Shown one piece after another: positions 1,800 through 33,742 of a stretch of 64,000 bases of DNA (position 1 is its first letter; the number at the start of each line of letters is the position of its first letter). The position numbers and the translations under genes were made by a program. The stretch spans positions 2,333 through 66,332 of the forward strand of contig JBAVOO010000088.1 in assembly GCA_049692125.1 (NCBI GenBank). The letters run 5' to 3'. Under the pieces are notes generated by a model. It did no database searches. It worked only from the letters and a program-made list of their open reading frames with translations, and was not told the origin of the DNA. This DNA is from Verrucomicrobiia bacterium (GTDB lineage: Bacteria > Verrucomicrobiota > Verrucomicrobiia > Limisphaerales > UBA11358).

Positions 1800-4016
1800 T
1801 CACCGCGCCGCGCGATCAAGGGCGGCGAGCACGATGCCCGGTGTCAGAATTTCAGGCAGGACAATCGGCGGCGCGGCGGCGTCCTTGGGATAAACCAAAA
1901 CCAGCGGCACCCCGGCGCGGTTGAAACGGTTCAGCTCCTCCGAAATGTTTTCGGGGAATCGCGTATAGTCGCCAAGCAACGCGACGGCGTTCATGGACTT
2001 GAGTTTCGCGCGCACGGACGCGATTTCGAGGCTGGTCTTTTTGTTGACCTGACAGGTGAGACACCAGTCGGCGGTGAAATCCACGATTATCGGGCGACCT
2101 TCGCTGCGCGCTTTCGCCACGGCTTCAGGACTCCAGCGCTGCCAGTCAATTCCGTCCGCCGATTCTTTCAGCGAACCGGTTGGGTCCGCAGCCGCCATTG
2201 GTGCGCGCCAATGCAACTGGCTTTCCAACACGCAAGCATAGCCCCCGACCAGCAAAATCAAAACGACAGCGAACGCGACGCCTTTACCGGCACGGCCACG
2301 CTGGACGAACTCGCCGAAAATCCACGCCGCAAACGCGACGACCACCAGAAAAACGCCCAGCCATAACACACGTCCGCCGTAACTGCCGGCGGCGAGGTTG
2401 AACAACCACACGGCGGTCGCCAGCATGGGAAAGCCCATCGCGATCTTGAACTTTTCCATCCATGCGCCGGGCTTCGGCAGGAATTTCAGCCACGCCGGGT
2501 TCCAGCTCAGCACGACATACGGCACGGCCAGCCCGACACCGACAGCGAGAAACATCAACAAAATCACCGGCGCTTTTTGCGCGAAGGCGAAGCCGAGGGC
2601 GATGCTCAAAAATGGCGCGGTGCAGGGCGTGGCCAATACCGTTGCCAGCACGCCGTTGAAAAATGCGCCCGCCGCGCCATGCTTCGACGCCAGTCCGCCC
2701 GCCGCGTCGAGCGCGCGTCCGCCGAGCGTGACTTCAAATACACCGAACAAATTCAATGCCACCAGCGTCACGAGTGTGGTGAGACAGACGACAAAGACCG
2801 GGCTGCCGAATTGCATTCCCCAGCCGGCGTGATGTCCGGCCGCCTTGACGCCGATGACGACCGCTGCAAGCGCGATAAACGACACCAGCACGCCGAGCGC
2901 ATAGACGAGACCGAGTTTGCGCACATGACGCGGGTCACTTCTGGCTTCACCGACAAAGCCGAGGATTTTCAACGCGATGACCGGCAACACGCACGGCATG
3001 ATGTTCAGAATCAATCCGCCGATGAAGGCGTAGAGCAGCATTTGCCAGAGCGGTTGCATAGGCACAATGGTGGTAGATGACATCGTGGCAGCAGAAGCAA
3101 ATTTCTTGGCAGTGACCTTATCGCTTATAGGAAGTTTCAAATTAAAACCCAAAGGTCTGCCGAAATTTTTCATGGCAATCACGCCGCTGATTTCCCTGGG
3201 CCAGTCGCCGGAATATTTCTTTACCAGTTTGCGCAAATAAAGAACAGCATGTGCGTGGGGGACATCTTCAGAGGTGGCCTGAATTTCAAAACTATCGCTG
3301 GCGTCAGGGAAAAAATCGACATCGGATATTTGCATTGACCCAGGTCTATTGCTGTCTGAGAACCGAATTATCAACGGACGTACGTCACCATTTGCCGGTT
3401 TTTCCCATTCTGCACTAACAGAATAAAATCTGTCATCAATGGGCTGAGGTACTCTGTCTTCCCATAATTCAATTGTCGCTAACGCATAGGCGGAAGTTTT
3501 GGTCTGGTCACCGACATTCAGCGTGGCTTCGACGTTGCCGCTACCGGGGACGCATTGATCCTTGCATTCGAGCCAGGAAACCTTGGCCTTCAAATCGAGC
3601 GGGCCGGGCTTCAAATTGGCGGCGAGCTTGAGCGGCACGAGCAGGACAACCTCGTCGTCGTAACCGTAGGTGGTGACTTCGGCGGGCGGCAATTTTTCCG
3701 GGAGCGGCCATTGGATTTCGCCGGCGGTGACGCCCGGCGGGAGTTGCCATTCGATTTTGGTGGCCATGCCGGCGGCGCCGGGATTTTTCCAGTAGGTGTG
3801 CCAGCCTGGCTCCATTTTCAAATCCACGCCTACCAGCACCGTGTCGCCGGGGCGCGCGGTGTCGGCGGACAAAATCAGCCGCACCTGGGTGTGGGCTGCG
3901 TGCGCAACGAGGGCCGCAAGGCAAAATAACATGCCTGCCAGAATGGTTCCAATGCGTCGCACAGGGATTAGATGCCAGATTTGACGGAATGTTTGAAGTG
4001 ATTTCGGGCTGAACAA
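1800..4016 (-). CDS. DsbD/ScsB-like thiol:disulfide interchange (protein-disulfide reductase) membrane protein
   Basis: N-terminal periplasmic domain (WLECKDQCVPG), central DsbD transmembrane core (NIMPCVLPV, ATPCTAPF), and C-terminal thioredoxin domain DFTADWCLTCQ. Confidence 0.85.
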   Translation of the reverse strand: MFSPKSLQTFRQIWHLIPVRRIGTILAGMLFCLAALVAHAAHTQVRLILSADTARPGDTVLVGVDLKMEPGWHTYWKNPGAAGMATKIEWQLPPGVTAGEIQWPLPEKLPPAEVTTYGYDDEVVLLVPLKLAANLKPGPLDLKAKVSWLECKDQCVPGSGNVEATLNVGDQTKTSAYALATIELWEDRVPQPIDDRFYSVSAEWEKPANGDVRPLIIRFSDSNRPGSMQISDVDFFPDASDSFEIQATSEDVPHAHAVLYLRKLVKKYSGDWPREISGVIAMKNFGRPLGFNLKLPISDKVTAKKFASAATMSSTTIVPMQPLWQMLLYAFIGGLILNIMPCVLPVIALKILGFVGEARSDPRHVRKLGLVYALGVLVSFIALAAVVIGVKAAGHHAGWGMQFGSPVFVVCLTTLVTLVALNLFGVFEVTLGGRALDAAGGLASKHGAAGAFFNGVLATVLATPCTAPFLSIALGFAFAQKAPVILLMFLAVGVGLAVPYVVLSWNPAWLKFLPKPGAWMEKFKIAMGFPMLATAVWLFNLAAGSYGGRVLWLGVFLVVVAFAAWIFGEFVQRGRAGKGVAFAVVLILLVGGYACVLESQLHWRAPMAAADPTGSLKESADGIDWQRWSPEAVAKARSEGRPIIVDFTADWCLTCQVNKKTSLEIASVRAKLKSMNAVALLGDYTRFPENISEELNRFNRAGVPLVLVYPKDAAAPPIVLPEILTPGIVLAALDRAAR

Positions 4017-4787: not shown

Positions 4788-6032
4788 ATGTTCATGAGTT
4801 CGGGACTGACAAAAGCCGCCCGGTACGGCGCGGTTTTGTGGGTGGCGTTTCTCTTCGGAGCGAGCTTCAAGGTCAATGCCGCGCCCGGCGTCGAAGCGAC
4901 GGCTGCCGCGAATCCTCAATCCGGACAGGTTCAAACAGTCCATCTCGATTACGTCGAGGTCGGGTATAGCTTCATTAACCGGGGACTCCCGCTGGTCACT
5001 CGATCCACGCCGTTCGCAAAGGAACCGGCGTTTGCCGGGAGCAAAGTCGTGCGCGGCACCTTCCAGCCCGGTGGCAGCGCCAGTAATGCAATCGCTTTTG
5101 CCTGGGACCGTGCCGCCGGAAAACTTTACCTCGATCTGAATCGCAACCTGGATTTGACCGATGACCCCGACGGCGTGTTTGGGTGCCTGGAGAAGAACTA
5201 TTCCGGACACTACCAGACATTTGCCAACGTCCGCCTGCCTTTTAAAACACCGTCAGGCAATCGCGAAATGCTCGTGGACCTCAACCTGAATGACTACGGG
5301 TCACGGCCCGGCTGCACTGCCGCCGTGCATTCATTCTGGCAGGGCAAGGTGACGCTACAGGGCGTGGAATGTCAGGTGGGTGTGGTGGAAAATCCTTTCA
5401 GCCGCTCCGATCCGGCCCCGGACGGATATCTGCTGTTGCGTCGCTGGGCGGCGCGGAATGAGCCGTTCAGCACGGACGCCGGCTCGTTTGTTGCCTTTCC
5501 CTTCCCGCGGAAATTGTTCTATCAAAACCAGGCCTGCCGGCTGGACTGCACCAACGAACTCTCGGGAAACAACGCCCGGCTCAAATTGCAGTTCACCGGC
5601 GAACAGCCGGTGCTGGGGGAGCTGAAAATCAACGGCCATTTTATTGAGCGTGCCATTCTGCAAGGCGGGCCGTATCTGGTGGTGCTGGACCAGCCGGAAA
5701 CGGTCGTGAAGGTTCCGGTGGGCAAATACAACCGGCCGGAAGTCTGGCTGAAGCAGGGCGACACCGTGGCCTATTACTCCACCTATTCGGTGCGACCGGA
5801 CCAGGGGATTACCATTGACGGGAACAAGCCGGGGTTGTTGGCGGCGGGTGGTCCGCTGACGAACTCGGTGTCCCTCAGCCGTCACGGGAAATCCCTGCGT
5901 TTCAATTACCAGTTGCTGGGCGCGGGCGGCGAGGTCTATCAACTGGCGCGGGTGGATCGCTCCCAGCCGCCTGAGTTCGCGGTGTACAAAGGCGACCGGA
6001 AAATCGCGTCGGGCAAATTCGAATTTGGCTGA
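4788..6032 (+). CDS. Secreted protein P1 ending ...KFEFG-TGA; candidate selenoprotein (TGA 6030-6032 possibly Sec)
   Basis: Signal peptide MFMSSGLTKAARYGAVLWVAFLFGASFKVNA (the six-frame ORF starts at 4719). Paralogue of 6920-8122. The frame stays open after the TGA and the downstream peptide is conserved. Confidence 0.7.
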   Translation: MFMSSGLTKAARYGAVLWVAFLFGASFKVNAAPGVEATAAANPQSGQVQTVHLDYVEVGYSFINRGLPLVTRSTPFAKEPAFAGSKVVRGTFQPGGSASNAIAFAWDRAAGKLYLDLNRNLDLTDDPDGVFGCLEKNYSGHYQTFANVRLPFKTPSGNREMLVDLNLNDYGSRPGCTAAVHSFWQGKVTLQGVECQVGVVENPFSRSDPAPDGYLLLRRWAARNEPFSTDAGSFVAFPFPRKLFYQNQACRLDCTNELSGNNARLKLQFTGEQPVLGELKINGHFIERAILQGGPYLVVLDQPETVVKVPVGKYNRPEVWLKQGDTVAYYSTYSVRPDQGITIDGNKPGLLAAGGPLTNSVSLSRHGKSLRFNYQLLGAGGEVYQLARVDRSQPPEFAVYKGDRKIASGKFEFG

Positions 6033-6917
6033 GGCAGCACCTGCTCGTACTCATGGCGAGTACCTTCCACGACCGCCGGCGAACTGAAGATTGTGGCCAT
6101 TTCCGATCTCGGAGGCCTCGGCGCGAAGGAAGGCGCTCCGGTCAGCTACCGGTGGACACCCCCCAGTCTCATCCCTTCATTTCTGCCGTGGCTGGCGGTT
6201 TTGCTGCTGTTATTGGCGAAGCCAAACCATTGCGGCCGGGCATGGTGGATCTGGCTGCCACTCGGATGTGTGGCGGCCATGGAACAATTGTCGCAGTCAG
6301 CCTTTGAATTTCTGCCATCGGGCACGGCAGACATGTTTCTGGAAATGGCGGGTTCGCTGGCCTTTGGCGTTGCCGCCGTCTGGCTGCTGGCGCCCCAACT
6401 GGCGCGCCGCCATCGCTTCGTCACTTTCCTGTGCCTTGCGCCCACCCTGGGGGTCTTCAGCCTTTTCAGTTTTTTGGTCAGGCAGGATTGGACCGGGGAC
6501 GGGGCCTCCCTGGCTTTGGCAATGCTGGTTCCGCTGGCCCTCAGCGTTCTTGTGGTTGCGCTGGCCATCTTTTTGGCCGGGTTGGCCTGCCGGGGCCGCT
6601 ATCATCCGCTGGGTCTCTACCTCTGGTTCTTCCTGTCAATGCTGGCGCTTTGGCTGGTGATTCTCACACCGTTCTTTGCCTTCGCAATGATTGTTTCGGG
6701 TGGTCAATTGCCGTGGCAGGAATTCTTCGTCGTGGTTTTGGTTCTGACGGCAGCCGGGTTCGTCACGCTGTTCCCGTTCCTGGTTCTGTCTTCCGCCAAC
6801 TCACTTTTCCGCGAACGGCTCAAGTTGCTGTTGCATTTGGGACGCGAAACTCCGCCACCGGTTTTGCCGCCGGAGATGGCGCCGTTGCCCGCCGCCAGAC
6901 CGGGAAAAAGTGTTTGA
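6033..6917 (+). CDS. Polytopic membrane domain, in frame with P1 across the TGA (alternatively an independent gene from GTG 6093)
   Basis: There is no stop between 6033 and 6917 in the P1 frame. The 20 linker codons GSTCSYSWRVPSTTAGELKI are followed by about 7 hydrophobic segments. Confidence 0.6.
   Translation, partial: GSTCSYSWRVPSTTAGELKIVAISDLGGLGAKEGAPVSYRWTPPSLIPSFLPWLAVLLLLLAKPNHCGRAWWIWLPLGCVAAMEQLSQSAFEFLPSGTADMFLEMAGSLAFGVAAVWLLAPQLARRHRFVTFLCLAPTLGVFSLFSFLVRQDWTGDGASLALAMLVPLALSVLVVALAIFLAGLACRGRYHPLGLYLWFFLSMLALWLVILTPFFAFAMIVSGGQLPWQEFFVVVLVLTAAGFVTLFPFLVLSSANSLFRERLKLLLHLGRETPPPVLPPEMAPLPAARPGKSV
6042..6062 (+). promoter_or_regulatory. Candidate SECIS-like hairpin 3' of TGA 6030
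   Basis: tgctcgt/gcgagta gives 7 pairs (including G-U) around the loop actcatg. The stem starts 12 nt after the TGA. Same register as the hairpin at 8134-8150. Folded by eye only. Confidence 0.45.
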
Positions 6918-6919
6918 TA

Positions 6920-8122
6920 ATGGCCAAAGAGTTTGAAAAATGTGTTATGCGAAAAATGGATTCCTTAAAACCTGTCAGAGGATTGGGAAAATGGGGCGCC
7001 TTCGCCGGATTGGTTCTGGCGACCACGGTGCTGGCGCAGCCCGAGCAATGGCTGGAATACCACACCAGCGCCGAGGGCCGCGCCTACCACCAGATGGAAC
7101 TGACCACCAACCCGCCGCCCGGCGTCGCCCTGCCCAAGCTGAACGCGCCGCCCTGGTTCGCGCGCTGGCTTACGCCGATGGACCCCGCCGGGGGCCGCTG
7201 GCTTTGTCTCGACCGCACGCGCAAGTCCGGCCCTTACGACCGGCTGTTCATTGACAGCAACGGCAATGGCCGGCTTGACGACAAAACACCTCTTCAAGCG
7301 CGGCTGGATTCCTACAACGCCTATTTTCCGCCGGCCCCCGTTGTCTTCAAGGGTGAGGACGGGCCGATTACCTATCATCTCGCGTTCCGGTTCTATCAAT
7401 ACGAAAAGAACCCCGCGCAATTGCTGGCATCGTCCGCCGGCTGGTATGAAGGCGTGGTGAATTTCGACGGCGCGAAAAAGCGCATCCAACTGATTGACGG
7501 CAACGTCAACGGCACGTTCAACGACGTCGCGCCGGACCCGTATGACAGCGACCGTGTCCAGATCGAAGGCGACAAAACCGGCGAGCGTTTTCTGGGCAAG
7601 ATGGTGGAAGTGGACGGCAAGCTTTTCAAAATCGAAGCCGCCCGCGACGGCGCGTTCGTCAAGGTGCAAAAGGCGGAAAACGTCACCCTCGGCCAGGTGC
7701 GCGTGCCGGAAAATATTTCCGAATTCGCCGCGTTCGGCGAGAACGGCCATTTCGTGCGCAAACCGGTGAACGGCGAATTCACCCTGCCGGCAGGCCATTA
7801 CCGGATCTTCCACTGGACGATCAACCGCAAGGATGAAAAGGGCGCGGCGTGGACGCTGTCAGGCTATAATTTCCCCCAAACCGCCGGCTTCGAGGTCGCC
7901 GCCGATAAAACCGCCGTGCTGGAAATCGGCGAGCCGGTGCAAGCCGTGCTCAAGGCGACCGAGAACACCAACCGCCAGGTCGCCTTCAGCCTCCGCTTCG
8001 AGGGCCGGCAAAAAGAAGCCATCGAGATGCTGCGCGACGGGCAGCGCCCGCGGGGGCCGAAATTGATGCTGGCCAACGCCGACGGGACGTTGTGTTATAC
8101 GAACACGTTCGAGTTTGGGTGA
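6920..8122 (+). CDS. Secreted protein P2 ending ...TFEFG-TGA; candidate selenoprotein (TGA 8120-8122 possibly Sec)
   Basis: Start MAKEFEKCVMRKMDSLK... with hydrophobic signal GAFAGLVLATTVLAQP (alternative starts 6947 and 6956). Paralogue of P1. The upstream part of ORF 6431-8122 overlaps the membrane domain in another frame. Confidence 0.7.
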   Translation: MAKEFEKCVMRKMDSLKPVRGLGKWGAFAGLVLATTVLAQPEQWLEYHTSAEGRAYHQMELTTNPPPGVALPKLNAPPWFARWLTPMDPAGGRWLCLDRTRKSGPYDRLFIDSNGNGRLDDKTPLQARLDSYNAYFPPAPVVFKGEDGPITYHLAFRFYQYEKNPAQLLASSAGWYEGVVNFDGAKKRIQLIDGNVNGTFNDVAPDPYDSDRVQIEGDKTGERFLGKMVEVDGKLFKIEAARDGAFVKVQKAENVTLGQVRVPENISEFAAFGENGHFVRKPVNGEFTLPAGHYRIFHWTINRKDEKGAAWTLSGYNFPQTAGFEVAADKTAVLEIGEPVQAVLKATENTNRQVAFSLRFEGRQKEAIEMLRDGQRPRGPKLMLANADGTLCYTNTFEFG

Positions 8123-8248
8123 GGCGGCGTTTGTTCGCTCTCATGGCGGGAGCCCAAAAATGTTCAGCGTCCGTTGGTTGGCAGTGTCAAAATCTTCAGC
8201 CCCTACCAGGTGCTGGCAAGTCCGTTGACGCTCGAAGCAAAAAAATAA
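8123..8248 (+). other. Open 41-codon extension after TGA of P2 (GGVCSLSWREPKNVQRPLVGSVKIFSPYQVLASPLTLEAKK, stop TAA 8246-8248)
   Basis: Translated by hand. It aligns with the post-TGA peptide of P1, and some of the differences are synonymous. Confidence 0.55.
8134..8150 (+). promoter_or_regulatory. Candidate SECIS-like hairpin 3' of TGA 8120
   Basis: ttcgc/gcggg gives 5 pairs (2 are G-U) around the loop tctcatg. The loop position relative to the TGA is identical to P1. Confidence 0.4.
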
Positions 8249-8259
8249 TCAAACATCCC

Positions 8260-11200
8260 ATGAAAATGACACGGCAATTCCTTCTGGTTTCTGCCGCTTC
8301 GGTGCTCTTGGGCTTTGGCACGCGCGCCCAGGTACAGGAACGGTTGCAGCCCATCATTCAAAGAGCGCCGGCCACCGGCGCCAACACCAGCCCGCAAAAA
8401 ACCAACTGTACCGGAACGGTCACGGACACCACCGGCAATCCCGTGGCCGGTGCGGCGGTGGAGTATTGGGGTTACGAGGGAAATCCATTCCTGGCAAATC
8501 CTCTGGAGCTAAAAAAACAAGTCACCACGGGCGCGGATGGCGCTTTTGAATTTCCGGCGTCGCGGGCCATGGGATTTTTGCTGGCGCGAAAGCCGGGACT
8601 GGCGCCGGCCTGGAAACAATTGGGTCAGCCATTTAATCCCGCCGGTGAGACGGAAGAACGTTTGGTGTTGACTCCGCCGGCGGCGCTGTCGGGCGTGGTG
8701 GTGGACGAAGCGGACAAACCGGTCGCCAACGCCGAGGTTTCCGTGGCCACGGCCATCAGCGAAATGTCACAGGAAGGCAGTGTGCGGACTTTCAATTACA
8801 TCACCGGCAAACCCGCGCACGATTGTTTTACCGCCCGCACGGATGCCGCCGGCCGTTTCCGCATTGAAAATTTTCCAACCAACGCCACGGCCACCCTTGT
8901 GGTTCAGGCGCCGGGAAAAGTTCTGCGCCCATCATCGCAGGATTCCGCTGGCTTGGACTCGCTGCCGTGGCGCGCGGGACAGGAGGACATCAAATTGGTC
9001 ATGGAGCCGGCCGGCAGCATCGAAGGCAAAATCATCGCCGAGGGAAGCAACCAACCGCCGCCCGTTGCGCGGCTGGCGTTGCGGCCCGACGGGCCGGGCT
9101 TTTTCGGTTTCGGCGAGCGCGAGCCGGCGCAATCCGGCACGGACGGCGCGTTCCACATCAGCGACGTGTCCGCCGGTTCCTACCGGATTCAGGCCGTCTT
9201 CGGCACCAACGCCATTCCGGAATGGGTCGCGGAGGCGGTTCCGGTTTCCGTTGAAGTCGGGAAAACCACTCGCGGCGTGCAGTTGACTGCGGTGCGCGGT
9301 GGTTTGCTGGAAGTGGTCGTGCTGGGACAAAGTGATCGCAAGCCGCTGGCACAGGTCATGGTCAATGCCTACCGGGAAAATTTTCAAACCGCCGGCACTT
9401 CCGACAGCAACGGCATCGCCTTCCTGCGGCTGACGCCGGGTGATTATCAGGTGATGGCGTTCCGTGAATCCATGCCCGCAAACCAGACCTCCGCCAGCGT
9501 GGAAACCGGCAAGACGAATCGCATGGAGATGGAAATCGCCGCCCCGAAGCAAATCACCGGCATCGTTCGCCAGCCGGACGGCCAGCCGGCGGCGGGATTG
9601 CTGGTGAGAATTGTGGGTGGTTTTGGCGCCAATGCGGGCGAGGTCAAGACCGATGCCGGCGGCAAATTTGAGCTGGAATGGAATCAGCGTCCATTCGGAC
9701 AAAACGACACGACCGCCTGTATTCTGGTCCGGGACCCGGAACATAATCTGGCCGTGGCGCAGGACCTGGACGAGGACACCACCCATCTGGATTTGAAGCT
9801 CGCGCCGGGACTCACGCTGGCTGGCCGGGTGGAATCCGACGGCAAACCGGTCACCAATGCGACCGCCTCGCTCGTTTTCTGGGCCGGCCGCAGCGGTTCG
9901 TGGCTTCAAGGTCTGGCCCGCACCAACACCCCGGGACAATATGAAATTCCCGCGCTGCCACCCGGCAGAAAATACGGCGTCATCGTCTCCGCGCCGGGTT
10001 ACGGGCAGCGGCAGATGCAAAATCTCGACATCTCCGCCGATGCCGGCCGTCAGGAACTTGATCCGGTGGAACTCAAGCCGGCGAATCTCAAACTCGCCGG
10101 CCAGGTGCTCGACCCGGACGACAAGCCGGTTGCGGGCGCTAATGTGAATCTTTCCGGCGAAGTCCAGCCGAACGCGAACGCGCGCACGGACCGCGAGGGA
10201 CGATTCCGCTTCGAGCATGTCTGCGAAGGCCCGGCTCAACTCTCCGCCAACAGCCAGCGTTCCTTCGGCAACGTTTCGGCGGAGGGCGGCGACACGAACG
10301 TCGTCCTCCGGCTCGGTCAAACTTATAACAGCGCCCCCGGTTCCATGGCGCACAAGCTGAAAGGCACGGTGACGGATGCTGATGGCAAACCTGCCGCCGG
10401 CGTGCAGGTGGCGGTGTTTCCAGCCAATGGCATGGTGCGCTGGACCAGGACTGCGACCAACGGCGCGTTCAACCTTACCTGGTCGCTCCAGCCGTGGCAG
10501 TTGCAAAACGGAGGCGCGATGCTTGTATTCCGCGACCCGGCGCGCAACCTGGCCGGCACGGAGGAGTTGCCGGAGGAAACCACGAACCTCGATGTGAAAT
10601 TGAAACCCGCGCTGGCATTTTCCGGGCAGGTGAAAAATGCCGACGGCGCTCCGTTGACCACGGCCCAAGTCGGTTTGTGGCTCAAGGCGGGCAACAGCTA
10701 CGAACAGCTAAATGAGCAGACGACCAGCCCCGTCAATGCTGAAGGCCGTTTTGAAATCAAGTGCCTCCCGCCGGACGCGCAGTACATTGTTTATGCGTCG
10801 GCCAAAGGTTACGGCAAGGGCCAGCGGCAACTTCAGCCGGAATACGAATCGAACCGCGTGGAACTGTCGCCGTTCGTCCTCAAGCCCGCCGACCGGGTCA
10901 TCGCCGGACAGGTGTTGAAAGATGACGACAAACCGGCGTCCGGTGTGAACGTGCAATTAAATGGCGAAGACCAGCCGGATGGTTACATGACCACCGACAG
11001 CCAGGGCCGGTTTCATTTTCAGGTTTGCGAGGGACAAATCCGCCTGTTTGCCTATTCGCAAAATGGCGGTGGCAACGCGCAGGCTACGGTCGAGGCGGGC
11101 GACACCAATGTCGTGATGACCTTGAGTTCCCAGTCGGGGAATATTCTCCAGACACCGCGTCGCGCCTCGCTCAAAGGCAGCCCGCTGCCCGATTTGGCCA

Positions 11201-11574
11201 CGGTGAATCTCGGCAGCGACACCGCGCCCGCCGGCCAGGCGGTGTTGCTGTGCCTGTTCGACGCGAGCCAGCGCCCGTCGCGGCACGTGGTCCACCAGTT
11301 GGATGAACAGGCCGCCGCACTACGGCAGCAGGGCGTCACGGTGCTGGGCGTTCAAGCCGCAGTCACCAGCGATGAAACATTCAATGAATGGAAAAGCGGC
11401 AGCCCGGTTTCATTTTCAGTCGGGCGTGTGACGGAGAGATCCGAAAAATCAAAATGGGCCTCGGCAGTTCCAGCATTGCCGTGGCTGATTCTGGCCGACG
11501 CCAATCATCGCGTGATCGCAGAAGGTTTCGCGCTCGACGAGCTGGACGCGCAGATCAGGAAATTACCGAAGTGA
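8260..11574 (+). CDS. Giant secreted protein with ~9-10 carboxypeptidase-regulatory-like (Ig-like) repeats and a C-terminal degenerate thioredoxin-fold domain
   Basis: Signal peptide MKMTRQFLLVSAASVLLGFG. Recurrent G(T/Q)V.D.DGKP.AGA.V units. The C-terminus has a TlpA-like layout (VLLCLFDASQRPSRHVVHQL...VTVLGV...PWLILAD), but SQRP replaces CxxC. Confidence 0.75.
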   Translation: MKMTRQFLLVSAASVLLGFGTRAQVQERLQPIIQRAPATGANTSPQKTNCTGTVTDTTGNPVAGAAVEYWGYEGNPFLANPLELKKQVTTGADGAFEFPASRAMGFLLARKPGLAPAWKQLGQPFNPAGETEERLVLTPPAALSGVVVDEADKPVANAEVSVATAISEMSQEGSVRTFNYITGKPAHDCFTARTDAAGRFRIENFPTNATATLVVQAPGKVLRPSSQDSAGLDSLPWRAGQEDIKLVMEPAGSIEGKIIAEGSNQPPPVARLALRPDGPGFFGFGEREPAQSGTDGAFHISDVSAGSYRIQAVFGTNAIPEWVAEAVPVSVEVGKTTRGVQLTAVRGGLLEVVVLGQSDRKPLAQVMVNAYRENFQTAGTSDSNGIAFLRLTPGDYQVMAFRESMPANQTSASVETGKTNRMEMEIAAPKQITGIVRQPDGQPAAGLLVRIVGGFGANAGEVKTDAGGKFELEWNQRPFGQNDTTACILVRDPEHNLAVAQDLDEDTTHLDLKLAPGLTLAGRVESDGKPVTNATASLVFWAGRSGSWLQGLARTNTPGQYEIPALPPGRKYGVIVSAPGYGQRQMQNLDISADAGRQELDPVELKPANLKLAGQVLDPDDKPVAGANVNLSGEVQPNANARTDREGRFRFEHVCEGPAQLSANSQRSFGNVSAEGGDTNVVLRLGQTYNSAPGSMAHKLKGTVTDADGKPAAGVQVAVFPANGMVRWTRTATNGAFNLTWSLQPWQLQNGGAMLVFRDPARNLAGTEELPEETTNLDVKLKPALAFSGQVKNADGAPLTTAQVGLWLKAGNSYEQLNEQTTSPVNAEGRFEIKCLPPDAQYIVYASAKGYGKGQRQLQPEYESNRVELSPFVLKPADRVIAGQVLKDDDKPASGVNVQLNGEDQPDGYMTTDSQGRFHFQVCEGQIRLFAYSQNGGGNAQATVEAGDTNVVMTLSSQSGNILQTPRRASLKGSPLPDLATVNLGSDTAPAGQAVLLCLFDASQRPSRHVVHQLDEQAAALRQQGVTVLGVQAAVTSDETFNEWKSGSPVSFSVGRVTERSEKSKWASAVPALPWLILADANHRVIAEGFALDELDAQIRKLPK

Positions 11575-12048: not shown

Positions 12049-12145
12049 GGAGGTGTAAGGCGACCTGGTGGCGCTCACGGTCTTCAAAACCGCTGTGGGG
12101 CTCAACAAAGTCCCAGGTGGGTTCGATTCCCATCCGCCTCCGCCA
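12049..12145 (+). tRNA. selC: tRNA-Sec (anticodon TCA at 12084-12086)
   Basis: 97 nt. Extended acceptor stem ggaggtg/cgcctcc, anticodon loop cttcaaa, long variable arm tgggg-ctcaacaaag-tccca, T-loop gttcgattc, 3' gcca. Confidence 0.9.
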
Positions 12146-12654: not shown

Positions 12655-12813
12655 TTTAAATCCGAATGTCGAAAACCGAAAACCGAAGGAAAACCGAAGC
12701 CCGAAATCCGAATATGAATGCATGTCTGGAATCGATCGCTTTGGAATCCGGCCTTTTTTCGTCCTTCGGATTTCGGATTTCTTTCGGCATTCGTCCTTCG
12801 GATTTCGGATTTT
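12655..12813. repeat. Repeat family R5 (aaatccgaa / ttcggatttcggat units, inverted)
   Basis: Multiple ccgaaa and ttcggatttcgga units. Related copies lie at 28843-28974 and 39152-39184. Confidence 0.7.
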
Positions 12814-12816
12814 AAC

Positions 12817-13701
12817 ATGGACTGTCCCGTGCCCAATTGTCAGGAGCGTGAACCGACGGCGCTCGGACGGAAGCTGTCGTGCCTTCGTCCCTGGTTGCAG
12901 ACGGGCTTTCTCGGCATCTGGCTGGCACCGGTGGGCCGATGGCTGCACGGCATCCCCGGCTGTGTTTTCCACTGCTATTCCTGCCCGCTGTCTTCGTTCG
13001 CCTGCCCCGTGGGCGTGGCGGCGAACTACGCTGCGCTCCTGCCCGCCGCGTTCGAAGTGCCCTACCTGCTCATCGGTCTGCTGCTGGTCGTCGGTGCGGT
13101 GAGCGGCTCGCTCGTCTGCGGCTGGGCGTGCCCGTTCGGTTTCCTGCAGGATCTCCTCGGGAAAATCACCCGCAGGAAAGTGGCGTTGCCGGGCTGGATG
13201 GGTTACACGCGTTACGTCGTGCTGTTGGGATTGGTGCTGCTGCTGCCGATGGTTCTCGGCTTCAATGGTATTCCTTACGAGAACCAGGTCGTTTCCATCT
13301 GCCGGCTTTGCCCGGCGGGCGCGCTGGAAGCCGGCGTGCCTTATTCGGTCCAAAGTGTTTTGGCCGGCAAAGGTTGGGTCATGAGCTGGTTCAAAACGGG
13401 CATTCTGCTTTCCTTCCTCGCCGCCGCCTTGTTTGTTCACCGTCCGTGGTGCCGCATTTTTTGTCCGCTGGGCGGTTTTCTCGCGCTCTTCAACCGGTTC
13501 AGCCTGTTTCATCTCCGGTTCAATCCCAAGGAATGTGTGGAATGCAACCTCTGCCGCAGCCGGTGTTCGATGGGGGTGAAGGTGGACCAGAAAGTGAACG
13601 TGTCCGGCTGCATCCGCTGCCTCGAATGCACCACCTGCGGCGCGATTGAACCCTGCTTCGCCCTGCCGCAAAACGCGCCGCCAGACAAGGCGACAACTTG
13701 A
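12817..13701 (+). CDS. Membrane 4Fe-4S-binding protein (NapH/MauN-like polyferredoxin type)
   Basis: CPFGFLQDLL, CRLCPAGALE and CRIFCPLGG motifs between hydrophobic helices. C-terminal CVECNLCRSRC and CIRCLECTTC ferredoxin motifs. Confidence 0.75.
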   Translation: MDCPVPNCQEREPTALGRKLSCLRPWLQTGFLGIWLAPVGRWLHGIPGCVFHCYSCPLSSFACPVGVAANYAALLPAAFEVPYLLIGLLLVVGAVSGSLVCGWACPFGFLQDLLGKITRRKVALPGWMGYTRYVVLLGLVLLLPMVLGFNGIPYENQVVSICRLCPAGALEAGVPYSVQSVLAGKGWVMSWFKTGILLSFLAAALFVHRPWCRIFCPLGGFLALFNRFSLFHLRFNPKECVECNLCRSRCSMGVKVDQKVNVSGCIRCLECTTCGAIEPCFALPQNAPPDKATT

Positions 13702-13784: not shown

Positions 13785-15416
13785 TCAACGTCGCGCTTTG
13801 TCCGTTTTGCCCGGCTGAACCCGGGCGAGGCTCTCCTGGTAAAACATCTTCACCGGCGCGCCGCCCATGGCGATGGCGCACCATGCCGCCTCGTCCAGTT
13901 CCGCCTGCGTGAGGCCCAGTTCGCGCGCCTTGCGAAAGTGCGCGTCGAAGCACGGGTGGCACCGGCTGTGCACCACCAGGCTGAACAAAATCAGTTCCTT
14001 GGCCTTCTCGCTCAGGACGCCGCCCGCCTGCACCGAGCGGATCATCGCGCCGAAAGCCTTTTGCGTTTCGCCGACGGAACTCGCCGCGCCTTCGCCCTTG
14101 AACATGTCTGCGCAACAACCTTCTTGGTGAGCGGTGGAATCTGTAGCTGATGATTTCATGGATTTGTTTTCCGGTTGAGGGACGCCTGATTTCTTCCCGC
14201 GAATCTTCGACGCGCCCGGTGAAGAGGGGATGACAAGGATTTGTGCGTCGGATGAACCGACAATCCGGCCAATGACAAAACTGCCGGCGCCGCGCCGCGC
14301 CAGGGCCTGACGCAAAGTATCCAGCCGCTCTGCGGGGACGGCGATCAGCAATCCGCCGGAAGTTTGCGCGTCGAAACCCAGGTTGACCAGTGCTTCGTCC
14401 ACTTTCGGCGCCACGCGGATCGCCTCGCCGACATATTCGCGGTTTCGCTCGGTCGCGCCCGGGATCATGCCCTGCCGGAGGGCTTCAATCGCGCCGGCAA
14501 ATGCCGGCAACGCATCGGCGAAAATTTCCGCGCCCAGCTTGCCCGGGCGCAGCAGGCGATGGAGATGCGCGAACAGGCCGAAACCTGTAACGTCCGTGCA
14601 GGCCGAGGCGCCGGCTTCCTTCATCGCTTCCGCCGCCGCCTTGTTCAACGTGGCCATCGAAATTTCGGCGGCAGCCATGCCTTGCGGATACCCGCGCCCG
14701 ATTTGCTGGCAAAACGTCAGCACGCCGGTGCCCAGCGGCTTGGTCAACACCAGCACGTCGCCGGCCTCCGGCTTTTCCAGCGCGGCGGCAACCTTGGGAT
14801 TGATCAGGCCGGTAATGGCAAAGCCGAGTTTGATTTCGTCGTCCTTGATGCTGTGCCCGCCGACGAGCGCCACCCCGGCCTCTTCAAAAATGTCCATCGC
14901 GCCGGCCAGCAACTGGTACATGACTTCGCCCGGCAATTTTTCGGTGGGAAACGCCAGGATGCTCAATGCCGTGCGCGGCTCGCCGCCCATGGCGTAAATG
15001 TCCGAAAGACAGTTCACGGCGCAGATTCGTCCGAAAAGATGCGGGTCATCCACGCACGGCGTGAACACGTCCACGGTCTGCACCAGGCAAAGGTCGTCGG
15101 ATATCCGGTAAATGGCCGCGTCGTCGCCCGCCGCCAGCCCGGAAATCACGGCCGGATCGTTCACAGCGGGCAGCCGGCCCAGCACCGCGTCGAGTTCGGC
15201 GGGGGCGATCTTGGACGCGCAGCCGGCGTTGCGGACCAGCTCCATCAGTTTGACCTGCGACAGGTCCACCGGGTCGGGCCGTTCGCCGGCGCACGGGCAG
15301 ATGCCGTCGTCGCGAAAGACGTCGCACGGGCATGGACGCCGCACGTCGCAGATGCAGTGGCCCAGCAGTTGCGACCGCTCCATCACGCGCCGGCGTCTGG
15401 CAAAATCAATTTTCAT
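13785..15416 (-). CDS. selD: Selenide, water dikinase SelD fused to an N-terminal Cys-rich module and a C-terminal AhpD/CMD-like domain
   Basis: SelD core (NAGCASKIAP, VDVFTPCVDDPHLFGRICAVNCLSDIYAMGGEP). N-terminal HCICDVRRPCPCDVFRDDGICPCAG. C-terminal ...LILFSLVVHSRCHPCFDAHF... resembles carboxymuconolactone decarboxylase/AhpD. Confidence 0.85.
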   Translation of the reverse strand: MKIDFARRRRVMERSQLLGHCICDVRRPCPCDVFRDDGICPCAGERPDPVDLSQVKLMELVRNAGCASKIAPAELDAVLGRLPAVNDPAVISGLAAGDDAAIYRISDDLCLVQTVDVFTPCVDDPHLFGRICAVNCLSDIYAMGGEPRTALSILAFPTEKLPGEVMYQLLAGAMDIFEEAGVALVGGHSIKDDEIKLGFAITGLINPKVAAALEKPEAGDVLVLTKPLGTGVLTFCQQIGRGYPQGMAAAEISMATLNKAAAEAMKEAGASACTDVTGFGLFAHLHRLLRPGKLGAEIFADALPAFAGAIEALRQGMIPGATERNREYVGEAIRVAPKVDEALVNLGFDAQTSGGLLIAVPAERLDTLRQALARRGAGSFVIGRIVGSSDAQILVIPSSPGASKIRGKKSGVPQPENKSMKSSATDSTAHQEGCCADMFKGEGAASSVGETQKAFGAMIRSVQAGGVLSEKAKELILFSLVVHSRCHPCFDAHFRKARELGLTQAELDEAAWCAIAMGGAPVKMFYQESLARVQPGKTDKARR

Positions 15417-15429
15417 TCAGCAATGATTC

Positions 15430-15652
15430 AACCACGGATGGACACAGATGAACACGAATAAAAGAACGGCCCGTGGCTAGGATTTTGGACTGCGGCGGGA
15501 AGCGAAGCGCCACGCCGCTTTGGAAGTTCGATCCTCGGTCGAAAAGCGGTGTCGCCGCTGCGCTCTGCCACCGCACTCCAAATTTTTTGCCGTTCGTGTC
15601 GTGACGCGCCCCACATTGTGCCCATCCGTGTCTATCCGTGTTCATCCGTGGT
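15430..15652. repeat. Composite element, repeat family R7 (arms aaccacggatggacacagatgaacacg / cgtgtctatccgtgttcatccgtggtt)
   Basis: The inverted arms at 15430-15457 and 15624-15652 enclose a ggactgcggcgg...gctctgccaccgcactccaaa module. The right arm touches the selB stop codon. Confidence 0.7.
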
Positions 15653-17607
15653 TAAGATTTTGAATTTAAAAGCTTCTTCGCCTCGGTTCCCGGCGTCCGG
15701 TTGTTTCCGGAACGGACGGTGAAGCGGACCTTGTCCAAATAATCCACCAGCGGCACGGCGTATTTGCGGCTCACGCCGAGCGCATCGCGAAAATCCATGG
15801 TGGAGAACATCGGCGCGCGGGCGAAAAGTTTCAAGACGGTTTGTTTGCCAGCCTCCACGGCGTCGCGATGCATCCAGACGCGGTCGTCCAGCCGCACCAA
15901 AATCCCACGTTCGCCCAAGAGCCGCGTCATCGCACCGACGCGCGGCAACGGTTCGCCGAGTGCCGCCGCCAGTTCCTCCGCGCCGGGCGGCGCCCAGCCG
16001 GCCTGCTGCAACTTCGCGGCAATCTGGTCGCACAAGCGCTGGTCACGGTCCACTATCCGCGCGCTCCAGCCCGCCCGCGCCAGGATGTTTCCGTTGTGCT
16101 CAATTTGCTTCGTCCCGAGCAACGAATCCACGGCCAGGTCCAGAAGCTCGCCGTTGGTCTTGAGACCGGCCAGCAGTTCATCCCGGCTGATTCCCGCCCG
16201 TTGGGGGTTGGCGGTATGAAAGGCCTGGATGGCTGCGAGAATACCGGTCGCGGTTTTCTGGATGACATCACGGTGCAGCCACCTGCCGCCGGGTGTCGAG
16301 ACCGCGCGACCTTCGGCGCGCAGTGAACCAAGCATGGCCGTCATCTCTTCCGCGCGCATGAGGCTTTTCAATTGCAGTTCGGCGGCGGTCGCCGATAGCG
16401 CGCTCTCGCGCAACATCAATTCGCACCAGCGTGCCGGTTCGGCGATGGCCGCCCGCCGGGCCGCCAGCAGCTCCAGCGTCCATTGCTTCTTCCGGCGCAA
16501 CCGGATGTTGCCGATGCCAAGAAGCTGTCCGCCGCCAATCGTGGTCAGACCGGCGACGCCGGAGCCGGCCACGTTGGCCCGGACGACAAATCGTTCGCCG
16601 GGCGCCAGCGCGAGCGGTTCCGCCAGCCGGAGCTGGATCATCTGCTTCTGGCCGCCGGTCATTTCTGTGTTTTCGAGCATCGCCAGGCGGGCTGACACCG
16701 CCGCCGTCCCGACATGCAACTGCGCTTCGAGATAGTCTTCGATCTTGCCCTTGACGGAATCGAGAATCCGCAATTCAGTTTCCGCCATGGTCACCGGGGC
16801 CGGTAACTCCGATTCGCTGAGAACCATGCCGCGCCGCACCAATTCATGATCAATCTCGGGAAGGTTCAGCGCGACGCATTCTCCGGCCCGTCCCTCCGTC
16901 GCGTCTTCGCCATAAACCTGCATGCGGCGGACATGTCCGGACAAGCCGGTGGGTAGCAGATGCAGGCGGTCGCCCGGTCGCACGCGTCCCCGGGTGGGTA
17001 TGCCGGTGATGACTGTGCCGGAGCCGCGAATCGTGAACACGTCCTCCACCCACATGCGAAACCAGCCGGAGCAGGGGCGGTTTTCACATTTGGCGACCAC
17101 CTCGTTCAGCGCGTCGAAAAATCCATCAAAGCCTTCGCCGGTGACGTTGGAAAGCGGGCAAATTGGCGCGTTGGCCAGGAACGTTTTGGCGAGCAACCGC
17201 CGCAGATCTTGAATCACAAAGGTGCGCCGGGCCTCGTCAACGATATCCACCTTGGTGAGCGCCACCAGTCCATGACGCAATCCCATGAGCGTGAGAATGT
17301 GGAGGTGTTCATGCGTCTGCGGCATGACGCCGTCGTCCGCCGCGACCACGAAAATGACAACGTCAACGCCGTGCGCGCCGGCGGCCATATTGCGGATGAA
17401 ATCTACGTGGCCCGGCACGTCCACAACGCCGACGACGCGCTTGTCCGACAACTGGCAGGGGGCGAAGCCGAGGTCAATGGTGAGGCCGCGTTGTTTTTCC
17501 TCGGCCAGCGTGTCAGTCTCGCAGCCGGTGAGCATCCTCACCAGCGCGGTCTTGCCGTGGTCCACGTGCCCGGCGGTGCCGAGCATGATGTTGCGGCGGG
17601 AAGTCAT
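15652..17607 (-). CDS. selB: Selenocysteine-specific translation elongation factor SelB
   Basis: GTPase motifs GTAGHVDHGKT and DVPGH. Long C-terminal winged-helix-type extension (651 aa). Confidence 0.9.
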   Translation of the reverse strand: MTSRRNIMLGTAGHVDHGKTALVRMLTGCETDTLAEEKQRGLTIDLGFAPCQLSDKRVVGVVDVPGHVDFIRNMAAGAHGVDVVIFVVAADDGVMPQTHEHLHILTLMGLRHGLVALTKVDIVDEARRTFVIQDLRRLLAKTFLANAPICPLSNVTGEGFDGFFDALNEVVAKCENRPCSGWFRMWVEDVFTIRGSGTVITGIPTRGRVRPGDRLHLLPTGLSGHVRRMQVYGEDATEGRAGECVALNLPEIDHELVRRGMVLSESELPAPVTMAETELRILDSVKGKIEDYLEAQLHVGTAAVSARLAMLENTEMTGGQKQMIQLRLAEPLALAPGERFVVRANVAGSGVAGLTTIGGGQLLGIGNIRLRRKKQWTLELLAARRAAIAEPARWCELMLRESALSATAAELQLKSLMRAEEMTAMLGSLRAEGRAVSTPGGRWLHRDVIQKTATGILAAIQAFHTANPQRAGISRDELLAGLKTNGELLDLAVDSLLGTKQIEHNGNILARAGWSARIVDRDQRLCDQIAAKLQQAGWAPPGAEELAAALGEPLPRVGAMTRLLGERGILVRLDDRVWMHRDAVEAGKQTVLKLFARAPMFSTMDFRDALGVSRKYAVPLVDYLDKVRFTVRSGNNRTPGTEAKKLLNSKS

Positions 17608-17701: not shown

Positions 17702-19141
17702 TCATCCCGCAATTCTCCCCAGCGCCCCGGCAATGGCCGGCACCTGCTCGTCCGTGATGGTCCGCACATCCAACAAAACCCGCTCGTGTTCGATGCGTCC
17801 AAAGACACAAGCCCGGTCCAGTCGAAGCGCCCGTGCCAGATTCGCGGCTTTCATGCCGGGCAGGCTGACGCTCACCACGAAGCTGGGAATGGCCTCCTCC
17901 GGCAACGAACCGCTGCCCAGATAGGACTGGCTGGTGTGAATGTTCGCCTTCGCTCGCGGCGCTTTCTCCCGGATGGCTTGGGCCAACGCCTCGGCGCGTC
18001 GCTGGAGTGCGTCAGGTGGCGTGGTCATCATGCGATAAGTCGGATGCTCGCGGCGGAGCAGTTCGGGATCACGGAACAGGTGCAAGGTGCGCTCCAGGAC
18101 CATGATGCAGGTCTTGTCCACGCGCAACGCCCGCATCAACGGATGCTTCCGGATCCTGGCAATCGCCTCCTTGCGGCCGACGATGATGCCGCTCTGGTTG
18201 GCGCCGATCAGCTTGTCGGCGCTGAACAAGACCACGTCCGCCCCGGCTTCGATGGATTCGCGGACGGTCGGTTCATGCGGCAATCCGAACTGGCGCAAAT
18301 CCAGCAAAGCGCCCGCTCCGAGATCGTCAATCAAAAGCAAACCCTTGCTGTGCGCTAGTTCGGCCAGCTCGGCCAGTGGCACTTCGCTGGTGAAGCCGAC
18401 GACGCGATAGTTGCTCGGATGCACGCGCATGAGCGCGGCGGTCTTCTCGGTAATGGCGTTGCGATAATCCTTGAGGTGCGTCCGGTTGGTGGTGCCCACT
18501 TCGACCAGCCGCGCCCGGCTTTGCGCCATCACATCGGGCAGCCGGAATGAACCGCCGATCTCGATGAGCTGGCCGCGCGAAATGACGACTTCGCGGCGCG
18601 CCGCGAGCGCGGCCAGGACCAGCAGCGTGGCGCCGGCATTGTTGTTGACGACCGTCGCCGCTTCCGCGCCGGTGAGTTCGGTGAGCAGGGGTTCGACCAG
18701 TTCGTCCCGCTCGATGCGTTCGCCCGAATCGCGATCCACGGCCAGGTTCACGTAACCCTTCAAGCCGGAAATCATCGAATCCACGACGCTGCCCGGAAAG
18801 ACCGCCCGGCCCAAGCCGGTGTGGAGAATGATGCCGGTGGCGTTGATGGCTTCGCGCACGCGCGGCTCGACGGCCTGTTGCAGCAATTCGTTGGCGTGGC
18901 TCAACACCGCGTCGGCGGTGATGTGTTGCGCACCGCACCGACCTGCGGCGTCATCGAGAATTTGTTGTCGCAGACCAGCGAGGGCGCGGCGCAGACAATC
19001 GGTGACGAGCGACTGGGGGTGTTGTTGAAGCCAGCCGGCGACGGTCTCGCTCTTCAGCAATTCAGTGACGGAGGGGAGATTCCGGAGCAGCTCCTGTTTT
19101 GGGTCCGACATAATCTTTGCCTGGCGCGGTGCCCATTTCAT
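17702..19141 (-). CDS. selA: L-seryl-tRNA(Sec) selenium transferase SelA
   Basis: INATGIILHTGLGRA and the PLP-lysine region FSADKLIGANQSGIIVG. The start may be 19108 (MSDPKQELLRNLPSV). Confidence 0.9.
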   Translation of the reverse strand: MKWAPRQAKIMSDPKQELLRNLPSVTELLKSETVAGWLQQHPQSLVTDCLRRALAGLRQQILDDAAGRCGAQHITADAVLSHANELLQQAVEPRVREAINATGIILHTGLGRAVFPGSVVDSMISGLKGYVNLAVDRDSGERIERDELVEPLLTELTGAEAATVVNNNAGATLLVLAALAARREVVISRGQLIEIGGSFRLPDVMAQSRARLVEVGTTNRTHLKDYRNAITEKTAALMRVHPSNYRVVGFTSEVPLAELAELAHSKGLLLIDDLGAGALLDLRQFGLPHEPTVRESIEAGADVVLFSADKLIGANQSGIIVGRKEAIARIRKHPLMRALRVDKTCIMVLERTLHLFRDPELLRREHPTYRMMTTPPDALQRRAEALAQAIREKAPRAKANIHTSQSYLGSGSLPEEAIPSFVVSVSLPGMKAANLARALRLDRACVFGRIEHERVLLDVRTITDEQVPAIAGALGRIAG

Positions 19142-19311: not shown

Positions 19312-20100
19312 TCAAAGCCCTCCCGGCCGTCGAGACGGCCCGGCGAGAATGGCCGCACCCAGCGCGCCGGTGAATTGCGGTTGCGGGGCGACGTGGACGG
19401 GACAAGCCAAAACTTCCTCCAGGGCGCGGGCCATGCCGGCCTGCAACGCGACGCCGCCGGTAAAATAAACCGGCGGCGAAACGAACCGGCCGGCCAGCGC
19501 CGAAACGCGCGTGGCGATGGAATTTTGCACGCCGGCCACCACGTCCGGCAGGGGCTTGCCTTCGGCCAGCAGACCGATGATTTCCGTCTCGGCGAACACC
19601 ACGCACATGTTGCTGATGAGCGCGGGTTTTTTGCTTTGGCGCGCCACTTCCGCCAGCTTTTCCCAATTCAGGTCCAGCCGTGTCGCAACCATTTCCAGAA
19701 AACGTCCGGTGCCCGCGGCGCAGCGGTCGTTCATCGCAAAATCGCGGACCCGCCCGCCGTCTTCGAGACTGATGACCTTGCTGTCCTGTCCGCCGATTTC
19801 AATGATCGTGCGCGCGTCGGGAGCCACGTGATGCACTCCGCGCGCATGGCACGTAATCTCGGTGATGGTGGTGTCGGCGAAATGGACGGTGTTGCGTCCG
19901 TAGCCGGTGGCCACCACGCCGGAGATCTGCGACCGCTCCAGTCCCGCATCCTTCAAGAGTTTTTCAAAAAGTTCCGCCGCCAGCCGTTCCTGTTCCACGC
20001 CCTGGTCGGTCAGGCCGGAAGCGAGAACTTGCATCCGGTCGGTGTCAAACAACACCGCCTTGATGGAGCGCGAACCCGCGTCTATGCCGGCGCAAATCAT
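19312..20100 (-). CDS. BcrAD/BadFG-type ATPase (acyl-CoA dehydratase / DCCP activase, HgdC-like)
   Basis: MICAGIDAGSRSIKAVLFD, GYGR, IIEIGGQDSK and the CAAGTGRFLE cluster-binding motif. Confidence 0.85.
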   Translation of the reverse strand: MICAGIDAGSRSIKAVLFDTDRMQVLASGLTDQGVEQERLAAELFEKLLKDAGLERSQISGVVATGYGRNTVHFADTTITEITCHARGVHHVAPDARTIIEIGGQDSKVISLEDGGRVRDFAMNDRCAAGTGRFLEMVATRLDLNWEKLAEVARQSKKPALISNMCVVFAETEIIGLLAEGKPLPDVVAGVQNSIATRVSALAGRFVSPPVYFTGGVALQAGMARALEEVLACPVHVAPQPQFTGALGAAILAGPSRRPGGL

Positions 20101-22447: not shown

Positions 22448-22461
22448 TTTACGCGCCGGTT

Positions 22462-33609: not shown

Positions 33610-33664
33610 CGTTTTCGTGATTGAAAGCGGCGGTCGGCAGGCTAGAATCAGTGCTTCGATGGTC

Positions 33665-33742
<78 letters not shown>

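Follow-up and report, generated by a model that had tools for sequence, protein, structure and literature searches.

Why should two neighbouring genes each come to an end at a TGA codon that lies inside the same conserved motif, when the reading frame stays open beyond it? The question is raised by a 64,000-nucleotide stretch of DNA from a Verrucomicrobiia bacterium of the Limisphaerales (GenBank assembly GCA_049692125.1, contig JBAVOO010000088.1, positions 2,333 to 66,332 of the forward strand), which we analyzed as a whole and refer to as the window, and in which the two genes, here called P1 and P2, follow each other a few kb from genes of the selenocysteine (Sec) machinery. A sequence-only reading of this locus had put the two forward as a candidate new selenoprotein family. 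The computational analysis reported here supports that proposal through a constant TGA, in-frame selection, a covarying hairpin, linkage to the sel genes and the lack of a match to any family model searched; on these grounds we consider it very probable that P1 and P2 are selenoproteins whose internal UGA is decoded as Sec.

The full read-through open reading frame (ORF) of P1 spans 4788..6917 on the plus strand and counts 709 codons. It begins with the ATG at 4788 and reaches the in-frame TGA, the predicted Sec codon at residue 415, at 6030..6032 (+), past which 294 further codons remain open until a TGA-TAA at 6915-6920; its translation comprises a signal peptide, an all-beta exported domain of ~380 amino acids, the Sec loop, four short strands and ~7 transmembrane (TM) helices. 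P2 (6920..8248, +, 442 codons) begins with the ATG at 6920 and carries its TGA, the predicted Sec codon at residue 401, at 8120..8122 (+), followed by 41 open codons up to the TAA at 8246-8248; a signal peptide, an all-beta domain paralogous to that of P1, the Sec loop and a 41-residue tail make up its product. Both signal peptides, which the sequence-only reading had also noticed, were recognized by eye from a basic n-region and a hydrophobic core, followed by the junctions VNA-AP in P1 and VLA-QP in P2. The TGA is flanked by KFEFG and GSTCSYSWRVP in P1 and by TFEFG and GGVCSLSWREP in P2, and the synonymous codon differences around it (GAA/GAG and GGC/GGG before, TGC/TGT, CGA/CGG and CCT/CCC after) are exactly those that had been listed.

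Over their whole length the paralogy of P1 and P2 is weak, with ~20% identity and E=0.043 in BLASTP. The two proteins are, however, colinear from a Ca-loop-like segment (LYLDLNRN/LFIDSNGN) through the last residue, and a single joint profile picks up both, confirming that they are paralogues as had been claimed. The aligned segments include LYLDLNRNLDLTDD / LFIDSNGNGRLDD and GELKIV / GSVKIF; the sequence downstream of the UGA includes EPKNVQRPLVGSVK and IFSPYQVLASPLTLEAK, and the P1 linker reads VPSTTAGELK / IVAISDLGGLGAK. A scan of the window for the loop motif returned P1 and P2 as the only exact matches, and in a crude scan for TGA-bridged ORFs they ranked 2nd and 4th of 119, with no other convincing candidate in the window. 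The top rank in the latter scan went to 33651-33857 (-), where a 415-amino-acid (aa) ORF (33855-35102, -) ends at a TGA and the frame stays open for 68 more codons, the usage of which resembles that of coding sequence; this candidate is probably spurious, as these codons overlap a tRNA-Pro gene (33665-33742).

The behavior of the TGA was followed in 94 related loci, consisting of 14 genome loci, all from metagenome-assembled genomes (MAGs) of Limisphaerales/Verrucomicrobiota, and 80 metagenome loci found with a 12-sequence alignment. A six-frame regular-expression scan that allowed any codon at the critical column found TGA in 141 of 141 motif instances defined in this way, and six further genes that the expression had missed, mostly with U-S-G-T-C variants (U standing for Sec), were checked by hand and also have TGA, which brings the count to 147/147. 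The codon is thus TGA in every P1-type homologue examined and in 51/51 of the P2 type. At their actual ends these genes use varying stops, namely TAA in 30, TGA in 9 and TAG in 5 of the P2 genes, and TGA in 58, TAA in 11 and TAG in one of the P1 genes. Past the internal TGA the P1 frame is open for 279-304 codons in 68/70 complete homologues; the P2 frame is open for 41-43 codons in most genes and for 212-516 in one clade (L011, L030, L032, L033, L035, L036, L038, L039, L042, L048, L051 and L088), where the figures come from six loci with a complete tail while the others run off the contig end. The recurrence of the TGA with the same in-frame continuation in 147 instances is far beyond chance.

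Selection on the codons that follow the TGA was estimated by pairwise Nei-Gojobori ratios of nonsynonymous to synonymous proportions (pN/pS) on distinct sequences, 79 of P1 and 47 of P2. In the same frame, codons +12 to +41 gave a ratio of 0.40 in P1 and 0.50 in P2, compared with 0.46 and 0.43, respectively, in the 50 codons upstream of the TGA, whereas the other two frames over codons +12 to +41 gave 1.17-1.56 in P1 and 1.05-1.36 in P2. Purifying selection past the TGA therefore matches the upstream level, and does so in this frame only. Directly behind the TGA, Gly+1 is written GGC, GGT, GGA and GGG across the homologues, and Cys+4, encoded by TGC or TGT, is retained in 146/147 instances. 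The sole exception is locus L059, the sequence of which diverges right past the TGA (about 1275) and has neither the Cys nor the hairpin described below; it may be a chimeric contig or a truncated or decayed copy. The sequence-only reading had named an unconserved 3′ sequence as grounds for giving up its proposal; both the frame and the codons proved to be conserved there.

Three further loci deserve mention. The 516-codon P2 tail of L011 (3014-4561) contains F5/8-type-C (discoidin) and Laminin_G_3 domains of Pfam, and the idea that the tail in this clade is a fusion to the neighbouring CarboxypepD_reg gene was rejected. In L005 (3900-6550) the P1 frame is broken, with 70 open codons upstream and 475 downstream, probably as a result of long-read assembly errors. 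L037 carries two tandem P1-type genes on one metagenome contig (TGA at 1430 and 3546), indicating that the family has expanded by local duplication too.

If the UGA is to be decoded by SelB, a stem-loop is expected within the coding sequence right after it. In P1, a hairpin with the sequence GUACUC-AUGGC-GAGUAC lies at 6047..6063 (+) and in P2 one with the sequence GCUCUC-AUGGC-GGGAGC at 8137..8153 (+), each with a 6-bp stem and a 5-nt loop and each part of the minimum free energy (MFE) fold; the stem begins 14 nt and the loop 20 nt past the UGA. Across 107 distinct sequences the stem is paired in 642/642 cells. At two of the six pairs both partners have changed (C-G/U-A 64:43 and A-U/U-A 71:36), and a further one varies between U-A and U-G. 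The observed pairing score was reached by 0/500 shuffles, and in slid registers pairing falls to 27-67%. A neighbour-joining tree of the flanking sequence only puts the number of switches between U-A and C-G at four or more, and unpaired intermediates were not observed. The hairpin is found within the MFE fold of all four sequence classes, the 48-mers having energies of -11.6 to -17.7 kcal/mol. The published model of the bacterial Sec insertion sequence (bSECIS) asks for a loop of 3-9 nt, an upper stem of 4-16 bp, 16-37 nt from UGA to loop and an MFE of at most -7.5 kcal/mol (PMC13188914), and the hairpin follows it in loop size, stem length, spacing and energy. A covarying hairpin 3′ of the UGA, for which the sequence-only reading had suggested a search, is thus present at bSECIS distance. 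The covariance-model search with Infernal suggested along with it had a different outcome, since over 5950-8300 no SECIS-type family of Rfam was matched at the gathering threshold or at a permissive E-value, the only match being a chance one to an HDV (hepatitis delta virus)-like RNA (E=7).

The hairpin also changes how the residues around it are to be read. As codons it reads UCG-NNC-UCA-UGG-CGR-GNN-CC, and the residue differences among the proteins are those of base-pair partners, namely Tyr/Val (UAC:GUA), His/Val (CAC:GUG) and Leu/Glu (CUC:GAG), which indicates a constraint on the RNA and not an independent sign of protein selection. The conservation of S-x-S-W-R-x-P, earlier taken for a protein motif, is largely the hairpin RNA read as protein; the motif at the protein level is U-G-[GSN]-[TV]-C, with the spacing U-x3-C. 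The claim of protein-level selection straight through the stop accordingly holds for G+1, x+3, C+4 and codon +12 onward and lapses for most of S-x-S-W-R-x-P.

All four sel components that had been noticed in the window were located. The tRNA-Sec, with anticodon UCA, lies at 12049..12145 (+; ARAGORN; Rfam RF01852, 68.9 bits), and on the minus strand follow SelD (13785..15416), SelB (15652..17607), the Sec-specific elongation factor with winged-helix SECIS-binding domains, and SelA, the selenocysteine synthase (17702..19141). SelD was considered as a selenoprotein client of the machinery and rejected, because it belongs to the Cys type (GCASK). Its C-terminus is extended by a fused CMD/AhpD-like domain with the CxxC motif SRCHPC, and a fusion of this kind, 542-543 aa in length, is also present in another genome (L095, 17101-18729). 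Between P2 and selD, on the plus strand, lie a 1104-aa exported protein (8260..11574) with seven CarboxypepD_reg repeats of Pfam and a degenerate AhpC/TSA-like C-terminal domain, conserved in its place in the gene order, and a NapH/MauN-like membrane ferredoxin (Fer4_5; 12718..13701), likewise a conserved neighbour. The last part of the CarboxypepD_reg protein (~11200-11574) is a thioredoxin (Trx)/AhpC-TSA-like domain without CxxC (VLLCLFDASQRPS), and its homologue in L011 (4626-7235) matches Thioredoxin_8. A divergent pair on the minus strand upstream of P1 (1053..4016) consists of an AhpC/TSA-Redoxin protein (1053-1688) and a full-length DsbD (1800-4016), in which DsbD_N, TM and Trx domains are all present.

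This arrangement recurs beyond the window. In 10/14 genome loci the tRNA-Sec is a few kb downstream of P2 and adjoins the cluster, and the recurrent order is P1-P2-CarboxypepD_reg-(tRNA-Sec)-Fer4_5-selD. On a 4.64-Mb contig (L095), where the N- and C-terminal parts of P1 (P1N and P1C) are separate gene models, the order is P1N, P1C, P2, CarboxypepD_reg, Fer4_5, selD-CMD, selB, selA.

In order to size the family, an exhaustive profile search built on the N-terminal domains was run on 1.84 billion representatives at 50% clustering; it returned 3061 representatives at E<1e-3, of which 552 lie below 1e-30. Among the best 149 of these 3061, some 142 end exactly at F-x-[FY]-G, the rest being fragments or frameshifts. 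Searches with single proteins gave a consistent picture: among 891 matches to P2 the best 120 are all ~380 aa long and end at FEFG, among 384 matches to the P1 read-through product coverage of the query stays at or below 58% throughout the best 120, and among 310 matches to P1C the best 120 are all 240-291 aa long, none with the N-terminal domain fused. All members encountered in public databases have been split by annotation into two or three hypothetical proteins, each of them truncated. The taxonomy of the clusters reaches little beyond Verrucomicrobiota, plus one MAG labelled Omnitrophota, and the source records of several relatives are named SPRUCE and palsa, which we take to be peatland projects. 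The family of P1 and P2 is large, lacks annotation and comes from Limisphaerales (Verrucomicrobiota) of soil and peat.

Structure models were used to describe the two products. AlphaFold2 modelled the N-terminal part of P1 as all beta, with a predicted local distance difference test score (pLDDT) of 87 and a predicted template modelling score (pTM) of 0.81; in the C-terminal part (pLDDT 79.5) a low-confidence Sec loop is followed by four short strands and about seven TM helices (helices at residues 47-255). This membrane domain, with ~7 TM helices and an amphipathic helix, is encoded by 6171..6833 (+) and is given as a separate ORF of 240-291 aa by gene callers. As modelled, P1 has its exported beta domain anchored by a polytopic membrane domain, with the Sec where the two join, and P2 is its soluble paralogue. 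Foldseek found no meaningful match in the PDB for P1N (best E 0.085, TM-score ≤ 0.13) or P1C (best E 0.6), so that the folds give no functional lead. With U read as C, the read-through products matched no selenoprotein model of NCBIfam at E≤1, nor did P1C, and in Pfam no family was matched at E≤1 by the read-through products except for noise (Salyut, E=0.28), and none by P1C. A thioredoxin fold with CxxC/UxxC at a helix N-terminus was not found, the P1N model being all beta and the motif U-x3-C.

Taken together, we propose that the UGA codons at 6030 and 8120 would be decoded as Sec by the SelB and tRNA-Sec encoded a few kb away, directed by the small in-frame bSECIS hairpin G-N-N-C-U-C / A-U-G-G-C / G-R-G-N-N-C. 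The products would be exported all-beta proteins with the Sec placed in a U-G-[GSN]-[TV]-C loop that ends the last beta domain. From there the P1 chain would run on through four short strands into ~7 TM helices, so that P1 would be membrane-anchored, and the P2 chain would end after 41 residues or, in one clade, enter discoidin and LamG domains. Within an exposed loop, the Sec and the Cys four residues on may be joined reversibly as a selenenylsulfide, a role that we infer with much lower confidence than the decoding itself. P1 and P2 might then act as an extracytoplasmic redox pair with the CarboxypepD_reg/Trx-like protein and the NapH-like ferredoxin protein, recharged by way of the NapH-like protein or of a pathway of the DsbD type and, in this genome, by the adjacent DsbD and Redoxin; a possible part for the latter two is extracytoplasmic supply of reductant, and the Sec loop may dock onto the CxxC-less Trx-like domain of the CarboxypepD_reg protein.

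Several observations sit uneasily with this proposal. In 104 of the 107 distinct hairpin sequences the loop G is at positions 3-4 (AUGGC, rarely GUGGC) and not at 1-2, so that the hairpin fails this rule of the published model, and folding z-scores of the whole sequence were unremarkable. A Cys form is absent from the 147 DNA instances and from the best 120-150 matches of each protein search, a census of top-ranked matches only that leaves room for distant Cys forms, and the usual Sec/Cys-pair criterion consequently fails. As regards the redox role, DsbD is adjacent in just 3/14 genome loci (L001, L003 and L005, where it is paired with the Redoxin gene as in the window), and homology offers no support for such a function, neither a Trx fold nor a match in Pfam, NCBIfam or the PDB having been found. 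The consensus model is known to miss a subset of real bSECIS elements (PMC13188914), and canonical elements are present in 87.4% of BSepDB entries (PMC13326102). The alternation of Cys and Sec at the column, which the sequence-only reading had proposed as a check and the lack of which it had counted against its proposal, was not seen; because the other evidence is strong, we read the lack of a Cys form as the mark of a family that appears to use Sec only.

The departure of the loop from the consensus rule lends some weight to a reading in which read-through of the UGA inserts a residue other than Sec, either by hairpin-stimulated near-cognate decoding as Trp, Cys or Arg or by SelB-independent recoding, and in-frame conservation and the hairpin are indeed silent on which amino acid is inserted. 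Sense codons would then be expected among 147 diverged copies, yet none occurs; the hairpin spacing suits the geometry of SelB, and the genes are tightly linked to a complete Sec machinery. The code is not reassigned either, TGA being the normal terminal stop of P1 in 58/70 genes, and genome-wide reassignment of UGA was rejected for this reason. We regard non-Sec read-through as very unlikely. Still more improbable, in our judgment, is that the TGA is an ordinary stop, with P1N, P1C and the P2 tail as separate products, P1C reinitiating nearby and the hairpin serving as a regulatory or coupling element. Gene callers do give P1C an ORF of its own, often from a GTG (Val) inside the hairpin, but this GTG is GTA in 50/82 P1 genes and GAG in P2, so that there is no conserved start, and the P2 tail has none either. 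Protein-level conservation begins at the codon directly past the TGA, which stays the same in 147/147 while the true stops vary. The hairpin has no T-tract, for which reason a terminator was rejected as well, and the linkage to tRNA-Sec and selDBA would be left unexplained.

A different matter is what the Sec would do. P1 and P2 could be selenoproteins in which U-x3-C is a ligand site for soft metals or metalloids (Cu, Hg, As, or as a Se/S carrier) on a surface beta-sandwich, and not a catalytic selenenylsulfide. Many predicted bacterial selenoproteins are tied to metals or metal-derived molecules (PMC13188914, section 7), the fold is not thioredoxin-like, the Trx-like domain of the partner has lost its CxxC, and the neighbouring CarboxypepD_reg/TTR-like repeats together with the lectin-type domains of one clade suggest a binding or surface role. 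On the other hand, the conserved cluster showed no gene for metal transport or resistance, the window has DsbD and Redoxin next to the two genes, and a NapH-like electron-transfer protein is conserved beside the genes; we consider the ligand site a serious alternative, albeit a rather unlikely one.

As selenoproteins, P1 and P2 were compared with the systems already described. They resemble SelB/bSECIS-dependent genes such as fdhF and grdB (Zhang and Gladyshev model, PMC13188914) in the in-frame UGA with a stem-loop inside the coding sequence right after it, in a UGA-to-loop distance of 20 nt, within 16-37, in a small loop containing GG, and in the presence of selA, selB, selD and tRNA-Sec, which in the window are also adjacent; they differ in the position of the loop G, in the lack of Cys homologues among those seen and in having no known domain. 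A catalogue of 119 prokaryotic selenoprotein families dated 2026 (PMC13188914, Table 1) has no entry with U-G-x-x-C in a protein that lacks known domains. The nearest entries by motif are UGSC (U-x2-C), TsoA (LULAxC) and hypothetical protein DG (NF049953, GUxG), and no model matches P1 or P2, in agreement with the earlier remark that the motif was not recognized among described families and that UGSC has a UxxC spacing. The UGSC family (NF041046) shares a short Sec-Gly-x-Cys-type motif, a possible selenenylsulfide and an uncharacterized function, whereas P1 and P2 have U-x3-C, are much larger and exported, and do not match it at E≤1. TsoA (NF045695; Haft and Tolstoy 2025, as given in PMC13188914, Table 1), listed alongside TsoB, a rhodanese/DsbD fusion-like selenoprotein, has the same U-x3-C spacing but its model does not match P1 or P2, and its L-U-LA-x-C differs from FEFG-U-GG-x-C; the DsbD of the window scores 131 bits with the TsoB model, the cutoff being 805. 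DUF1573 (PF07610, "UGC" selenoproteins) has no Pfam match in P1 or P2. With the DsbD-dependent TlpA/ResA/DsbG-like oxidoreductases, including their Sec forms, P1 and P2 share export, a close chalcogen pair and, in the window, DsbD and Redoxin next door, but those proteins have CxxC/UxxC in a Trx fold whereas P1 and P2 are all beta, and the DsbD adjacency is not conserved. BSepDB is restricted to known families (PMC13326102), and a search of the literature on selenoproteins of Verrucomicrobia or Limisphaerales found nothing relevant. We regard P1 and P2 as a new family within the bacterial SECIS-dependent selenoproteins, and its unusual traits are an apparent use of Sec only, two folds without solved relatives, a Sec at a domain-to-membrane junction and a bSECIS loop variant.

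According to a recent review, nearly all selenoproteins have Cys homologues (PMC13188914). The authors of deep-Sep state that their method depends on Cys-containing relatives (PMC12013277), and current discovery as a whole, through Sec/Cys pairs, truncated alignments to Cys homologues or deep-Sep, needs them. A Sec-only family is invisible to such methods, which would explain why this one has gone unnoticed. As to why Cys forms might be missing, the pKa of a selenol is about 5, and we speculate that in acidic peat or soil water a selenol could stay reactive at a low external pH at which a thiol does not. A tentative extension of the Sec reading, which we put forward as possible rather than probable, is that the family lacks any functional Cys counterpart, comprises two folds without solved relatives, is the main client that retains the Sec machinery in Limisphaerales, and makes up a new extracytoplasmic selenol redox or ligand-handling system of membrane-anchored P1, soluble P2, the CarboxypepD_reg/pseudo-Trx protein and the NapH-like ferredoxin; its role as main client is suggested because the genes share one cluster with tRNA-Sec and selDBA.

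Other features were recorded around the cluster. Directly beside selA (20097-23268, -) are two HGD-D (2-hydroxyglutaryl-CoA dehydratase D-component-like) genes and a class I methyltransferase. On the 4.64-Mb contig, genes for an extracytoplasmic function (ECF) sigma factor (7598-8161) and a Ser/Thr kinase with TPR repeats (5327-7564), both on the minus strand, lie divergently upstream of P1 in the position held by DsbD in the window, and may regulate the cluster. Further away in the window, at 52359-53116 (+), lies MISL, a large structured RNA with no assigned function, in full length (Rfam RF03079, 610.6 bits, E=4.9e-185).

The family may be common, its 3061 representatives (50% clustering) coming from Verrucomicrobia that abound in soil and peat, and recognizing it corrects thousands of gene models that are now cut at the UGA. 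It also adds a well-supported bSECIS variant, with the loop AUGGC, that breaks one consensus rule. For the bacteria themselves, the family gives a likely reason why the Sec machinery has been kept, and it lends itself to testing why Sec persists where Cys would usually do.

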